Source: an uncultured Eubacteriales bacterium (GTDB lineage: Bacteria; Bacillota; Clostridia; Oscillospirales; Acutalibacteraceae). Taken from it: a stretch of 35,608 bases of DNA. Positions 10,251 to 13,482 of this stretch are shown here, piece after piece. The notes under the pieces are model-generated. The model searched no databases. It had not been told where the DNA came from and saw nothing but the letters and a program-made list of their open reading frames with translations. Position 1 is the first letter of the stretch; the number at the start of each line of letters is the position of its first letter. The stretch is taken from the NCBI GenBank assembly GCA_964505515.1, contig CAZDIN010000002.1, positions 1 through 35,608 of the forward strand, in the 5' to 3' direction. The position numbers were made by a program, and so were the translations under genes.

Positions 10251-10283
10251 AAAAAAGGAAGGTTCTCTCGAACCTTCCTTTTT
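10251..10283. terminator. Terminator hairpin, copy 1 of a duplicated hairpin (left border of the AT-rich islet)
   Basis: AAAAAAGGAAGGTTC-TCTC-GAACCTTCCTTTTT. The stem is identical to that of the hairpin at 13448-13482. Confidence 0.85.
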
Positions 10284-10340
10284 ACACTTGGTACGCATGT
10301 TTATTAGTGATGGATTTTATTCATTATAAACAAATAGCAA

Positions 10341-10369
10341 TTGACAATTTGTCACATTTATATTAAAAT
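10341..10369 (+). promoter_or_regulatory. Consensus-like promoter of the islet, with a palindromic operator over the -35
   Basis: TTGACA (10341-10346), a 17-nt spacer, then TAAAAT (10364-10369). The 13-bp palindrome TGACAA-T-TTGTCA (10342-10354) overlaps the -35 and spacer. About 125 nt of leader precede the start at 10497. Confidence 0.55.
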
Positions 10370-10496
10370 TAACTTGTAAGGTGACCAGGTTTTTCCTTAC
10401 AGTGAGTTTGAAAGGACGTGATACCAATGTACGCAGAAGCTTCTGTTGACTTCGTAAACTACAAATTTAATATTAAAGTGAAAGGAGCAAAAAGTA

Positions 10497-13034
10497 ATGA
10501 AGAGATTACTTTCTGTGATGTTGTGTATCGCGCTTATTATAACGGTTGCTCCTATGACCGTTGCCACATCTGAATCAGCACAATACCAGCTGGCTCAGTT
10601 CCCCTCGGTTATAACCGAACAACAGATCGAAACTAACGGTCTTAAAAGGCGTTTACCAAAATATGATAGCTATACCAACGCAATTGGATACGAAAATGAA
10701 GACGGATCTGAAACGGTCTTTATCTATACTGATGACATTAAGTATAAAGATGAAAACGGAATAATTAGAGATAAAGACATAAATATAGCGTCTGCAAATT
10801 TGTTGCAAAAATCATCAGGATATTCATATAAGACGAAATCAAACGATATTCAGGTGTATTTTGCTGACAAAATATCGAAAGATACAGGAATAAAGATAGA
10901 GTACAAAGGCAAAGAGATAAAACTTGCGCCTAAAGTAAATCAGCAAGAAAAAAGAACCTCTGCAAAACAGACTGCCAAGTTGATAAAAGACACAGGTGTA
11001 GGTGGTAGCGGTTTAGAGAACATAATGCAGTACGATCAGGCAATCAGCGAAACCACTCATTTGCGTTTTGAAACAACCTACAGCGGATTAAAGGAAGACA
11101 TTATTCTTGATAAGTACACAGGCACAAACCGTTTTACATTTATCGCGGATTTTGATGATTTAACACCCGTTGCTTATAACAGAGGGGTACAAATCTATGA
11201 CGGGGATAGCGTAATAATGGAAATTCCTCCGATATATATGGAGGATTCCGGCGGAGAGTTTGATCCGGGCAGCAGAATTTCTATTGACAACACTATTGAA
11301 CTGTCTGCTCTCCCTGACGGAACCTACGAGCTTACAATAATTGTTGATAATGATTTCTTGACAAACAGCGACACTGTATATCCCGTGATTATTGACCCTT
11401 CTATAAACATAAGTTCATCCAGTCATAGCGACGCTTCTGTATATTCCCAGTGGCCTAACGACAACTGGGCAGGTCAGCTTCGTAATAACGTAGGAACCGA
11501 CAGAGTTTTGGGTACGGGTGTCTTCTATACTAAGTTTGACATTTCTGCATTATCAGGAATAAGGTACGATAATATAATCAGTGCTTATTATCATTGTTAT
11601 GAATTAACGGAAAACACCGAAAACTCGGTTATACAAGCATTCCTGGTGCAACAGGACTGGAGCGAATCGGAGATTACTTGGAATAACAGGCCCTCGTGCC
11701 ACTGGGAAAAGTTATGTGCCGTTAATGTAAATTCAATTGAAAAAAGTTCTAATGAAAACTATTGGTATGATTTTTATATTACATCCGCAGTTATGGCCTG
11801 GCTTCAGGGTGTTCCCAATTACGGAATAGGGCTTTGGGAAAGAACCCACTCGGGCTGGAAAGGTTTTGGTTCGGAAGAAAACGCGTCTTATATGCCGTAT
11901 TTGAAGGTGTCTTACGTCAATGAAGAAGAGGTTCCGGAAGGATTAGGATTAACAAACTTCAAATCATATTACATAAAAAACAAACGAAGTGGTTTATATT
12001 TAACCACCAGCGGAGATTACGATGAAGCAAATATTTATCAAAGCAATTTCACCGGCTCTTCTAACCAAAAATGGACATTAAAGTACCAAGGTGATGGTTA
12101 TTATAAAATCCACCCTGAAAATTCTGAACGCTTGATAGATGTTTATGGGGGTTCTGAGTATCCGAGCGGAAACATGAACGATACTAACATTCAATTGTAT
12201 CAGAATAACGGGGGATATAACCAACACTGGAAGATAGTTAGAAACTGGAACGGAACATACCGATTCTTGTCAAGACTGAGCGGATACAGCAGAGCTTTTG
12301 TTGTGCAGGGCGCGAGCTACTCAAGCGGAGAAAACGTAATTTTATATGATTATTCCTCTGATTATATGTTTAATGACGATTGGACACTTGAACCCGTAGA
12401 ATTGGGAGATGCTGATTTTTATAGTTTTACTGATTCTGGAGGATATGGTGTAGACACAACCGAAAACATCAATCAGGCTGTTGATTTGGCAGCAAGCATT
12501 GGATTTACAAGCTACAATCTTTTCAATCGCTCTGCGTATGATGCGTACAATTTTATGATGCTTGACGATTTGTGGTATTTTACAGGTCATGGCGACAGAA
12601 GCTACGCTCAATTCAACTCACTTAATGGTGATACGTGGGAAAAGAGTTACATCACTGCATCAGGAACAAATAATTACAGTATTAATTATAAAATAAATTT
12701 GATGACAGAAAACCAACTAAAAGGATTAAGCCTGGCTGTTTTCAGTTGTTGTCGTGCAGGAGAAAATGACGGAGATTCAAATATGGTTGGGAATGTGTAT
12801 AAGCGCGGCGCTCACTATGTGGTCGCTCATACCAATATAATAACAAGTGTGTATAATTCCGCATGGATGGTTCAGTTTTTGACTGCACTAAATAATGGAT
12901 ACTGTATTTACGACGCTATGGAAGTGGCGGACGAGTATTTATATTATTATTATGGAGGCACAGTTGCAGGCACAATAAATAATTTGAATCAAAGACATAC
13001 ATTAGGTGATGGTTCCGTAGTATTAAAGCACTAA
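10497..13034 (+). CDS. Secreted multidomain protein: signal peptide, beta-rich N-terminal region, DNRLRE-like (ITWNNRP) module, ricin-type beta-trefoil lectin, and a C-terminal clan-CD (caspase/gingipain/CHAT-like) putative cysteine peptidase domain
   Basis: The RBS is AAAGGAG. The Sec signal peptide is MKRLLSVMLCIALIITVAPMTVATSES. The central segment (DASVYSQWPNDNW...FYTKFDIS...SEITWNNRP...PYLKVSY) resembles DNRLRE-type beta-sandwich modules. Three lectin repeats each carry a QxW-type motif (NQKW, NQHW, NDDW). The final roughly 210 aa have a strand-His-Gly (LWYFTGHG) followed 53-54 residues later by a strand-Cys (LSLAVFSCCRAG), then GAHYVVAHT. This is the order and spacing of a clan-CD catalytic dyad. 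Confidence 0.6.
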   Translation: MKRLLSVMLCIALIITVAPMTVATSESAQYQLAQFPSVITEQQIETNGLKRRLPKYDSYTNAIGYENEDGSETVFIYTDDIKYKDENGIIRDKDINIASANLLQKSSGYSYKTKSNDIQVYFADKISKDTGIKIEYKGKEIKLAPKVNQQEKRTSAKQTAKLIKDTGVGGSGLENIMQYDQAISETTHLRFETTYSGLKEDIILDKYTGTNRFTFIADFDDLTPVAYNRGVQIYDGDSVIMEIPPIYMEDSGGEFDPGSRISIDNTIELSALPDGTYELTIIVDNDFLTNSDTVYPVIIDPSINISSSSHSDASVYSQWPNDNWAGQLRNNVGTDRVLGTGVFYTKFDISALSGIRYDNIISAYYHCYELTENTENSVIQAFLVQQDWSESEITWNNRPSCHWEKLCAVNVNSIEKSSNENYWYDFYITSAVMAWLQGVPNYGIGLWERTHSGWKGFGSEENASYMPYLKVSYVNEEEVPEGLGLTNFKSYYIKNKRSGLYLTTSGDYDEANIYQSNFTGSSNQKWTLKYQGDGYYKIHPENSERLIDVYGGSEYPSGNMNDTNIQLYQNNGGYNQHWKIVRNWNGTYRFLSRLSGYSRAFVVQGASYSSGENVILYDYSSDYMFNDDWTLEPVELGDADFYSFTDSGGYGVDTTENINQAVDLAASIGFTSYNLFNRSAYDAYNFMMLDDLWYFTGHGDRSYAQFNSLNGDTWEKSYITASGTNNYSINYKINLMTENQLKGLSLAVFSCCRAGENDGDSNMVGNVYKRGAHYVVAHTNIITSVYNSAWMVQFLTALNNGYCIYDAMEVADEYLYYYYGGTVAGTINNLNQRHTLGDGSVVLKH

Positions 13035-13048
13035 AAGGAGCGTTAATT

Positions 13049-13444
13049 ATGAAGAAAAAATTTATCTCAGTCTTTGTCGTCATATTGGTCGTTGCTCTCT
13101 TGCTTTGCGGATGTGCAAATAAAGATATTTCTGCCGCACAGTTCTCCTCCGATGCAAGCACTAGTAGATACACTAAATGGGATGCAATAAACACCGAGCG
13201 TGTGATTAGGGTTGGACAAACTGAAATGATTCAATTAGTTGTACCAATAAATGAGTACGCTAAAACGGTTAAGGTTGCGTGGGAGATTTCTGATGAATCA
13301 ATAGCGACCTTTGCGGAAGAGCACAATAACCGTTATTATTGCTATGTTGTTGGGTTGAAACCTGGCGAGATCACGATAGGCGGCGAGGTCACTGCACCCG
13401 ACGGCAACGGCTCGTTTTCCTACAAGGTCATCGTAGAAGAATAA
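13049..13444 (+). CDS. Small lipoprotein with a bacterial Ig-like (Big_2-like) domain
   Basis: The RBS is AAAGGAG. The lipoprotein signal has a lipobox-like LLCGC followed by ANKD. The C-terminal segment VKVAWEISDESIATFAEE...CYVVGLKPGEITIGGEV resembles Big_2 repeats. It starts 14 nt after the 845-aa gene and is equally AT-rich. Confidence 0.6.
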   Translation: MKKKFISVFVVILVVALLLCGCANKDISAAQFSSDASTSRYTKWDAINTERVIRVGQTEMIQLVVPINEYAKTVKVAWEISDESIATFAEEHNNRYYCYVVGLKPGEITIGGEVTAPDGNGSFSYKVIVEE

Positions 13445-13447
13445 AAT

Positions 13448-13482
13448 AAAAAAGGAAGGTTCGCGAGAACCTTCCTTTTTTT
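13448..13482. terminator. Bidirectional terminator hairpin, copy 2 of the duplicated hairpin (right border of the islet, also 3' of the holin gene)
   Basis: AAAAAAGGAAGGTTC-GCGA-GAACCTTCCTTTTTTT. The stem is identical to 10251-10283. On the opposite strand the loop reads TCGC, one mismatch from copy 1. Confidence 0.85.

Follow-up and report, generated by a model that had tools for sequence, protein, structure and literature searches.

A compositionally foreign two-gene islet between two copies of a terminator hairpin in a gut Clostridia chromosome

The islet and its bracketing hairpins

Here, we describe a small AT-rich islet in a 35,608-nt stretch of contig CAZDIN010000002.1 from an uncultured Eubacteriales bacterium. 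The whole stretch is called the window below, and all coordinates without a locus label refer to it. According to the run labels and source names of homologues, the host belongs to a Clostridia lineage from herbivore guts. The islet (10284-13447; 3,164 bp) is bracketed by two copies of the same hairpin and lies between a gene for a 230-amino-acid (aa) protein and a convergently transcribed gene for a phage-type holin. It contains only two gene-like open reading frames (ORFs) of at least 50 aa, which code for a large secreted protein (gene 1) and a small lipoprotein (gene 2). The features of the locus, with the GC content at third codon positions (GC3) of the genes, are:

9555-10247, plus strand: gene for the 230-aa protein, left flank of the islet; GC3 0.65
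10242-10283, no strand assigned: left repeat copy, made up of the terminator hairpin at 10251-10283 (loop TCTC) and about 9 nt upstream of it, including the stop codon of the 230-aa gene
10284-10496, plus strand: 5' non-coding region of the islet with a sigma-70-like promoter, a leader of about 125 nt and a possible upstream ORF from 10427
10497-13034, plus strand: islet gene 1, coding for a secreted multidomain protein of 845 aa; GC3 0.375
13049-13444, plus strand: islet gene 2, coding for a 131-aa lipoprotein with a signal peptide with an LCGC lipobox and one Ig-like, Big_2-like domain; GC3 0.455
13439-13482, no strand assigned: right repeat copy, made up of the hairpin at 13448-13482 (loop GCGA) and GAATAAAAT upstream of it
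13488-13910, minus strand: holin gene (Phage_holin_4_1, Pfam E 6e-43; holin in PHROG), right flank of the islet; GC3 0.72

The islet differs in composition from everything around it. Its GC content is 38.8%, compared with 52.9% for the remainder of the window, and the GC3 values of its two genes lie below the range of 0.54-0.72 seen in the 28 other genes of the window. In tetranucleotide usage, the islet is at a distance of 0.535 from the remaining sequence, compared with at most 0.21 for 3-kb windows not overlapping it. The original prediction, made from the letters of this DNA, had proposed an AT-rich two-gene islet of foreign composition bounded by hairpins with identical arms. Its coordinates and letters, as well as its spot counts of GC content, were reproduced exactly (26.7% for 10741-10800, 33.3% for 12061-12120 and 63.3% for 8701-8760), and all three measures of composition mark the islet as an outlier. 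The prediction also stated that no integrase, transposase or tRNA accompanies the islet. In agreement with this, no integrase, transposase or recombinase domain was found among the islet proteins with Pfam, PHROG and NCBIfam, and ARAGORN detected no tRNA or tmRNA in the window. PADLOC gave no match to a defence family.

The islet is predicted to have a promoter of its own. A promoter scan found TTGACA-17-TAAAAT at 10341-10369, which matches the consensus at 11 of 12 positions, and the -35 and -10 elements are conserved in three related loci (L004, L006 and L007). No known RNA family was found by an Rfam search over 9900-13900, in which the only sub-threshold match fell on the terminator itself. 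A possible upstream ORF at 10427-10573 on the plus strand (ATG TAC GCA GAA GCT TCT...) starts 10 nt past a GAAAGGA ribosome-binding motif and overlaps the start of gene 1 out of frame. L004 and L007 have it in the same frame and at the same length. It could serve in translational coupling or code for a leader peptide.

The left hairpin reads AAAAAAGGAAGGTTC-TCTC-GAACCTTCCTTTTT (10251-10283) and the right one AAAAAAGGAAGGTTC-GCGA-GAACCTTCCTTTTTTT (13448-13482), and the 15-nt arms are identical in the two copies. The hairpin core GGAAGGTTCNNNNGAACCTTCC occurs twice in the window with two mismatches allowed and was not found in any of 100 shuffles. Folding energies of both hairpins, on either strand, range from -19.5 to -21 kcal/mol, with z-scores of -4.5 to -5.9 and stems of 14-15 bp. 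Flanking A- and T-runs provide U-runs on both sides of both hairpins, each copy comes after a stop codon, and a terminator scan also detects both. By sequence, the two hairpins have the anatomy of a bidirectional intrinsic (Rho-independent) terminator, and the right copy is predicted to serve as the terminator for both the islet operon on the plus strand and the holin operon on the minus strand.

We next considered the extent and orientation of the repeats. The similarity between the two copies in direct orientation reaches about 9 nt to the left of the A-run (GAATAGAAC in the left and GAATAAAAT in the right copy), which gives 42 nt at 88% identity. These 9 nt of the right copy also match the corresponding bases GAATAGAAT of sites without the islet at eight of nine positions, again in direct orientation. 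Past the T-run, local alignment compared with shuffles revealed no similarity between the two copies. The repeats therefore read as direct, with a duplicated segment of about 34-42 nt. A duplication extending into the 3' end of the holin gene or of the 230-aa gene looked suggestive in a MAFFT alignment and was rejected, since the local-alignment scores were no better than those of shuffles (p 0.19-0.79). The pentamer GAATA, part of the 9-nt upstream match, is found natively at the 3' end of genes of the lipoprotein family as well (the gene in L011 ends in GTTGAATAA), and for this reason it is a plausible microhomology at the right joint.

The arms are invariant between lineages and the 4-nt loops are hypervariable, with the following distribution:

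Loop TCTC: all empty sites; left copy in the window, L004 and L006
Loop TCAA: left copy in X1 and X2
Loop GCAA: both copies in L007, in direct orientation
Loop GCGA: right copy in the window
Loop GTCA: right copy in L008

The original prediction had described the two copies as inverted relative to each other, because the right loop read on the opposite strand differs from the left one by a single mismatch. Given that the loops vary so strongly across lineages, such a resemblance over 4 nt carries no weight, and the direct match of the flanking bases to the empty site and the GCAA loop in both copies of L007 speak against an inverted arrangement. In the right hairpin of L007 (about 4375-4411 in that locus), each arm has gained one base at the symmetric position (GAGAAGGTTC...GAACCTTCTC), so that the palindrome is still perfect. 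Together with the shared GCAA loop, this paired change suggests that the stem is under selection, or that self-templated correction or conversion has taken place. In two further assemblies, X3 and X8, the contigs break inside the left hairpin (10243-10270 in the window): the left arm continues into GTTCGGCAC..., and ...GGGCATCAACTCCA leads up to the right arm. Either the hairpin loop of the X3/X8 lineage has received another insertion, or the perfect palindrome has caused a de Bruijn graph artefact.

The hairpin does not seem to be a dispersed element, as far as can be seen within what was searchable. Among 185,579 species-representative genomes (596 Gb), the core GGAAGGTTCNNNNGAACCTTCC was found in 32 stretches from unrelated organisms and contexts, none of them at the islet locus, and no contig had more than two copies. 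A scan of JGI metagenome contigs gave no match and a scan of IMG/VR three, all unrelated. At the locus itself, the 35.6-kb window has two copies and each contig with an empty site (contigs of up to 13.6 kb) a single one. These counts do not bear out the suggestion of the original prediction that the hairpin is a dispersed recombination substrate resembling repetitive extragenic palindromic (REP) sequences. Single terminators with GGAAGGTTC arms, A- and T-runs and other loops were seen in three gut Clostridia, a Eubacterium sp., an Oscillospiraceae member and a Ruminococcus sp. (L016 at 2608, L030 at 6169 and L031 at 7328), in unrelated contexts; the stem sequence therefore recurs sporadically. 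Other strong terminators of the window have different sequences. One of them is a perfect 15-bp G+C-rich hairpin at 5434-5469 (ATGCGACCCCTGACG...CGTCAGGGGTCGCAT), located between a gene ending at 5429 and a gene starting at 5536, and as its sequence is unrelated, the islet hairpin is not a generic terminator of the host genome.

Empty and occupied alleles of the site

Related loci were reached through homologues of the 230-aa protein, which share 87-90% identity with it and adjoin the same site in contigs from gut metagenomes. Four of these loci (L001, L002, L003 and L005) are empty: the stop codon of the 230-aa gene, a single hairpin with the loop TCTC and the stop codon of the holin gene follow one another with nothing else in between. 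The hairpin lies past the stop codons of both convergent genes, at 3-10 nt from that of the 230-aa gene and at about 5 nt from that of the holin gene, and the window sequence to the right of the right hairpin continues exactly as in these sites. It had been predicted that a single terminator was duplicated around inserted foreign DNA and that an empty site should show one hairpin joining about 10250 to about 13483, and this is exactly the arrangement found.

Occupied sites were seen in at least four lineages. In L004 and L006, which code for the identical 230-aa protein, the left hairpin is followed by the islet promoter region and the large gene. Both junctions are seen in L007 and the right junction in L008, and eight further public runs (including X1-X3 and X6-X9) carry the islet at the same place. 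As the same junctions are present in independent assemblies, the arrangement is not an assembly artefact. The empty locus L003 and the occupied locus L004 share 99-100% identity over the ~1 kb that ends at the hairpin, and the synonymous divergence (dS) of the 230-aa gene is 0.021 both between L004 and L001 and between L004 and L003. The difference in presence and absence must therefore be recent. All four empty sites belong to the single lineage with the P0002 allele, which also includes carriers.

A more distant relative, L047, whose 230-aa protein shares 58% aa identity with that of the window, has the same convergent pair of 230-aa and holin genes separated by a single terminator of different sequence, without the islet. 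This arrangement indicates that the adjacency of the 230-aa and holin genes is ancestral and that the islet is an insertion. No islet was found in the short stretch available after the 230-aa gene in L044-L046, which represent a lineage with 74% identity. In these three loci, the 600 nt downstream of the 230-aa homologue contain a different terminator and then a non-coding stretch dense in CCTCCCTTGTGTAAAGGGAGG-like palindromes. That three independent assemblies end in such palindromes suggests a repeated element.

Some of the occupied loci show signs of decay. The islet of L007 carries an internal deletion of ~1.7 kb in the large gene (11011-12693 of the window are lost). In the same locus, an insertion sequence (IS) of the IS200/IS605 type with a 152-aa Y1_Tnp gene lies ~15 nt past the left hairpin (2101-2800 in L007, corresponding to about 10284-10300 of the window). 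It has its own subterminal hairpins (CCACCGACTATGTCGGTGG / CCACCGGCTAAGCCGGTGG) and is absent from other lineages. In L008, an in-frame TAA (482-484 in that locus) replaces Gln codon 150 of the large gene, and the called product is a 680-aa truncation (P0031). The large gene is dispensable in this lineage, unless the stop codon is a sequencing error.

The sequence divergence within the islet differs from that of its flanks. Over the first 148 codons of the large gene, dS is 0.13-0.19 among the window, L004 and L007, compared with 0.54-0.94 in the flanks, and the tree of this region is incongruent with that of the flanks; for L004 and L007, the values are 0.13 in the islet and 0.84 in the flank. 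The non-coding 5' region of the islet is 82-86% identical between lineages and the flanks are 83-89% identical. Such equal divergence of the promoter region and the flanks speaks for an islet that has long been resident and against a recent spread. From an overall comparison (islet 91.5%, flanks 83%), a transfer of the whole islet bounded at the hairpin had been considered. However, sliding windows placed the jump in identity at ~10450, inside the islet, and this idea was downgraded to internal mosaic recombination. The segment 10450-10700, which covers the ribosome-binding region and the first ~70 codons, is 97-98% identical between lineages, compared with ~83% for the flanks and ~85% for the promoter region, and from there dS increases steadily towards the islet 3' end, a pattern that suggests constraint at the nucleotide level or a recombination tract. 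Overall, the pattern fits an islet that has been resident since before the lineages split and has recombined internally, rather than a cassette hopping as a unit.

The islet genes and the neighbouring lysis block

The product of gene 1 consists of a signal peptide, a beta-rich N-terminal region, a CBM96/DNRLRE domain (residues ~307-472), a ricin-type beta-trefoil domain (~490-635) and a C-terminal domain (~636-845). The CBM96/DNRLRE domain matches PF24517 with 55.3 bits (cut-off 26) and NF033679 with 76.4 bits (cut-off 34), and the beta-trefoil matches PF14200 with 71.1 bits (cut-off 25.6). Matches to the CBM96 and lectin domains in the PDB, which include sequence matches, are 3pg0 and 3vsf, both on the beta-trefoil, and 8wab. 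No Pfam match, including to the CHAT model PF12770, was obtained for residues 596-845 even at E<=10, and the homologue P0039 reaches the Pfam CHAT model with 1.4e-7. The AlphaFold model has a mean predicted local distance difference test score (pLDDT) of 82.6 for the full-length protein and 84.0 for the C-terminal domain. Because the full-length Foldseek search was dominated by the lectin domain, the C-terminal domain was modelled separately; its best match was a SAVED-CHAT structure (8tl0; E 2.4e-7, TMq 0.66), followed by separase, caspases and MALT1. Based on the model, we assign the C-terminal domain to the caspase/CHAT fold (clan CD, caspase-hemoglobinase). A putative dyad is formed by the His of G697-H698-G699, conserved in 15 of 19 homologues, and by C752, conserved in 16 of 19; by motif and conservation, His698 and Cys752 look like a catalytic-type dyad.

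The ratio of nonsynonymous to synonymous divergence (dN/dS) of gene 1 is 0.04-0.11, which shows purifying selection. Purifying selection on the one hand and broken copies in L007 and L008 on the other suggest that the gene is useful but dispensable. Most likely, its product acts outside the cell as a cysteine protease with a caspase/CHAT fold that is targeted to glycans by the CBM96 and ricin-type lectin domains, and that works with, or under the control of, the partner lipoprotein. Alternatively, the cargo could be an inter-bacterial weapon. In the literature searched for this architecture (signal peptide, CBM96/DNRLRE, ricin-type lectin and caspase/CHAT fold), no described member was found.

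Gene 2 shows weak matches to Big_2 and to PHROG, and the partner protein in L051 has a Big_2 match on record. A small gene for a lipoprotein of this Ig-like type comes after the gene 1 homologue in every such locus (L007, L008, L009, L010, L011 and L051). There are 39 homologues of the gene 1 protein. Those with 80-87% identity are found at the same site (L008, and X8 with a 3,004-nt contig over the left junction), and those with 42-60% identity (L009, L010, L011 and L051) are found in unrelated chromosomal contexts without duplicated hairpins. The contigs of L010, L011 and L051 have a GC content of 34-43% and that of L009 ~50-55%. The tetranucleotide distances of L010 and L011 are 0.23-0.26 to the islet and 0.57-0.64 to the host window. 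The matching composition of L010 and L011 and the conserved pairing indicate that the gene pair is native to low-GC Clostridia and was moved into a genome of ~53% GC. Hence, looking for the islet in other taxa, as had been proposed, did uncover the homologous gene pair in unrelated contexts, mostly in contigs of 34-43% GC. A phage or plasmid source found no such backing: among the viral contigs of IMG/VR, 50,697 phage records and plasmids, only distant DNRLRE proteins with 25-27% identity were detected and no close relative of the cargo.

Compared with P0030 and L008, the N-terminal domains of the gene 1 protein are 82-98% identical, the C-terminal domain 69-71% and the lipoprotein 49%. Along gene 1, dS climbs from 0.19 to 0.65 and from 0.62 to 2.1, with dN/dS at ~0.1 throughout, and no positive selection was detected when dN/dS was calculated per domain. 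Between L007 and L008, the C-terminal fragment is near identical (dS 0.115) and the 5' ends have a dS of 0.64. We interpret this pattern as mosaic recombination among old alleles, and it is also compatible with a toxin-immunity or protease-inhibitor pairing.

The 230-aa protein on the left of the islet has no Pfam, PHROG or NCBIfam match. The genes further out are:

6637-9021, left of the islet: feoB
9170-9565, left of the islet: gene for a DtxR-type repressor
13886-14695, minus strand: gene for an N-acetylmuramoyl-L-alanine amidase of the endolysin type with a PG_binding_1 domain
Between the amidase gene and the GtrB-like gene, minus strand: two ORFs of unknown function, one with a faint match to a tail-fibre PHROG
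16437-17402, minus strand: gene for a GtrB-like glycosyltransferase
17386-20022, minus strand: gene for a YfhO membrane protein

Polysaccharide-synthesis genes come next on the plus strand, past the YfhO gene. The amidase shares 40-62% identity with endolysins in IMG/VR, and by sequence the holin/endolysin pair is of phage descent; to this extent, the phage-type neighbours named in the original prediction were correctly recognised. No capsid, terminase, integrase, phage repressor, att site or other structural or packaging gene was found in the window. The block of holin, amidase, two to three unknown ORFs, GtrB and YfhO is present in the same order and position in the window (13488-20022), in L001 (3632-10161) and in L047 (8754-15531). 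Because it is syntenic in L047, at 58% identity, and has a host-like GC3, we regard the lysis block as an old conserved chromosomal module rather than a recent prophage. The stretch from the holin to the YfhO gene resembles a lysis cassette that has been domesticated and joined to genes for cell-wall glycosylation, rather than a prophage in decay. The view of the site as the moron slot of a prophage remnant, which had been put forward in the original prediction, is at odds with this synteny and GC3, with the lack of any other phage gene in the window and with the absence of close cargo relatives from the phage and plasmid collections.

Origin of the islet and comparison with known systems

We think it probable that a foreign cassette was inserted once at the terminator, that the terminator was duplicated in the process and that precise losses followed. 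Here, we infer a single insertion, an illegitimate, microhomology-mediated mechanism that duplicated the target, and losses as the source of the empty sites in the P0002 lineage. The inserted unit would comprise 10284-13447 plus one hairpin copy, that is, a promoter-gene-gene cassette from a low-GC Clostridium-like donor. An ancestor of the species-level clade would have received it at the bidirectional terminator that separates the convergent genes for the 230-aa protein and the holin, either by microhomology-mediated joining at a fork-stalling palindrome or by integration of a hairpin-carrying circle. The two joints would lie on opposite sides of the terminator, one at the T-run and the other at the GAATA microhomology by the stop codon. 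With joints placed in this way, the 34-42 bp terminator would be duplicated as a direct repeat, and as a result the 230-aa gene, the islet operon and the holin operon would all have kept a terminator. In the following, the islet would have been inherited within the clade, with internal recombination between lineages and decay in some of them. Recombination or slippage between the two 34-nt repeats could then remove it precisely and restore a single hairpin, and such precise loss is the most likely origin of the empty sites in strains that are 99-100% identical to carriers.

Several observations weigh against this history. The loops of the two copies (TCTC and GCGA) differ at three of four positions, although all 30 stem positions are identical, and a simple target duplication predicts identical copies, so that fast loop turnover, a loop flip or later conversion has to be assumed. 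For an illegitimate insertion, 34-42 bp is also a long target duplication. The GGAAGGTTC hairpin at this site is known only from the islet-bearing clade and may have come with the islet, and gain and loss in the P0002 lineage are not polarised by phylogeny. Lastly, the 5' coding part of the islet has a dS two to six times below the flank values and a tree that disagrees with the flank tree, which points to some horizontal exchange of islet sequence between lineages.

Were the hairpin an attachment site, the cassette, lacking a recombinase of its own, would leave as a hairpin-carrying circle and re-enter the same terminator with the help of a recombinase acting in trans or of host recombination on the 34-bp identity, by analogy with pdif modules, integron cassettes and the mini-circles of T4-type phages. 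This would account for arms that are perfectly conserved in every lineage next to variable loops and adjacent bases, for clean empty and occupied alleles in near-identical backgrounds without imported flank DNA left of the hairpin, and for the incongruent trees of the islet 5' part and the flanks; differing loops are expected if one copy came with the cassette. Recombination between promoter-early stem-loops (PeSLs) and the resulting mini-circles are also documented in T4-type phages (PMC2839356). Nevertheless, we judge this explanation to be unlikely, as there is no recombinase in or near the islet, the islet occupies a single site in all data and the hairpin is not repeated elsewhere. Moreover, the high-identity tract begins at ~10450 and not at the hairpin, and with a promoter region as diverged as the flanks, a transfer of the whole islet is not needed. 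We know of no tyrosine recombinase core that a 4-nt spacer between perfect 15-nt arms would fit, and differing central bases (CT versus CG) are unfavourable for serine recombinases. The same judgement applies to mobilisation in trans by a hairpin-recognising element, one of the options of the original prediction. We are similarly doubtful about the specific proposal that the terminator hairpin doubles as the recombination site of a mini-circle cassette, which carries an undescribed secreted lectin-caspase-fold protease together with its cognate lipoprotein as inhibitor or immunity protein. If true, this would be a chromosomal bacterial counterpart of the T4 PeSL mini-circles or of pdif modules.

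The position of the islet just distal to a holin-endolysin pair of phage descent, its own promoter and terminator and its deviant composition are what one would expect of a phage moron, left as cargo at the lysis-proximal end of a prophage that otherwise decayed to the holin, the endolysin and a few tail-like genes. However, the lysis block is present without the islet in the syntenic relative with 58% identity and in the empty-site strains and thus predates the islet, its GC3 is host-like and that of the islet is not, and the window holds no integrase, att site, capsid or terminase. As the searches of the 50,697 phage records and of IMG/VR also returned no close relative of the cargo beyond distant DNRLRE proteins of about 25-27% identity, we consider a moron quite improbable. 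It is even harder to reconcile the data with AT-rich genes that are native and ancestral, with absence due to deletion and low GC due to gene-specific constraint. The presence of the islet in at least four diverged lineages, with a non-coding part as diverged as the flanks, and the ease of loss between direct repeats would be in line with this idea, which we nonetheless find very improbable: GC3 is 0.38-0.46 compared with at least 0.54 in all 28 neighbours, the tetranucleotides match low-GC Clostridia, and the closest out-of-clade homologues (42-60%) are in unrelated contexts, three of four (L010, L011 and L051) in low-GC genomes. In addition, the syntenic site of L047 is free of the islet, and none is seen in L044-L046 in the short stretch after the 230-aa gene. 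Scarcely credible, in our view, is an islet trapped between two members of a dispersed palindromic family, such as REP sequences and bacterial interspersed mosaic elements (BIMEs), palindrome-associated transposable elements (PATEs) or elements resembling miniature inverted-repeat transposable elements (MITEs), moved by a Y1 transposase (a REP-associated tyrosine transposase (RAYT) or the TnpA of IS200/IS605). An IS200/IS605-type element with a Y1_Tnp gene does adjoin the left hairpin in L007, the X3 and X8 contigs break inside that hairpin, and REP sequences are known IS targets (PMC1525189). Yet there are two copies in 35.6 kb, one per empty-site contig and at most two per contig in the species genomes, the empty site keeps its hairpin, unlike after PATE excision, and the L007 IS, which is absent from other lineages, carries different subterminal hairpins of its own.

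Among described systems, the probable insertion at a duplicated terminator resembles, in its outline, the PeSL cassettes of T4-type phages, in which repeated terminator stem-loops that flank dispensable genes recombine (Arbiol et al., 2010, PMC2839356; PMC4122927). In both cases, short repeated stem-loop terminators surround non-essential, compositionally odd genes, close relatives differ by clean insertions or deletions without a dedicated recombinase, and a strong sigma-70-like promoter lies just past the left stem-loop (10341-10369 in the window). The PeSLs, in contrast, occur in many copies in hyperplastic regions of phage genomes and contain the promoter within the repeat, whereas the islet lies in a bacterial chromosome between just two copies of a repeat limited to the hairpin; instead of a composite promoter and stem-loop repeat on both sides, the promoter follows the left copy only. 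A second likeness is to the microcin H47 island of E. coli, also a small island without an integrase between short imperfect direct repeats, whose precise excision was shown experimentally and credited to host RecA-independent recombination between these repeats (PMC5426353). The H47 repeats are longer and are not terminator hairpins, and loss of the islet is deduced from natural alleles only.

Of the features of integrative elements, the islet has the direct repeats and the clean empty site, with neither a recombinase nor an adjacent tRNA or tmRNA gene. A phage moron is reportedly an autonomous transcription unit of deviant composition between phage genes. The islet likewise has its own promoter and terminator and an odd composition and lies between two genes beside a lysis cassette, but it does not sit in a phage genome and travel with it: the surrounding block is a conserved chromosomal remnant older than the insertion, and no close relative of the cargo was found in the phage collections searched. 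Integron attC cassettes, the pdif modules of Acinetobacter, REP/RAYT systems and the PATEs of IS200/IS605 are all forms of mobile DNA that is targeted to or bounded by palindromes, and the islet is similar to them as a cassette without its own recombinase between palindromic sites. None of their defining features was seen, however: no multi-copy family was found in the genomes and contigs searched, and the empty site retains the palindrome. The palindromes of REP, PATE and MITE-type elements lie on the element's own ends and leave an empty site without them, whereas the empty sites here keep one full hairpin. An integron would have imperfect attC sites with extrahelical bases, IntI and attI, in contrast to the perfect 15-bp stem with a 4-nt loop seen here and no integrase within 35 kb. 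Similarly, the islet site is a perfect palindrome of 15+4+15 nt and not a dif-like site for Xer recombination, which we take to be 28 bp long (11-6-11).

With regard to the cargo, the CBM96/DNRLRE and ricin-type lectin domains of gene 1 pass the Pfam and NCBIfam thresholds and are those of DNRLRE (CBM96)/ricin-lectin surface proteins of Firmicutes. The caspase/CHAT fold predicted for the C-terminal domain and its conserved His-Cys dyad are shared with CHAT proteases. SAVED-CHAT and the Craspase component Csx29, however, are cytoplasmic defence effectors, whereas gene 1 codes for a signal peptide and lectin modules and is followed by a lipoprotein partner.

Taken together, the locus adds another case to a known kind of element, the genomic islet without a recombinase between short direct repeats, here with an uncharacterised but interpretable cargo, and it does not overturn current understanding. 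It provides a clean natural case of a small foreign cassette that was gained at, and probably also precisely lost from, a terminator without a mobility gene, and such cases help explain the origin of integration hot spots in bacterial chromosomes that are free of mobile genetic elements ("MGE-free"). It also shows how an insertion can spare its neighbours, as every transcription unit retains a terminator.

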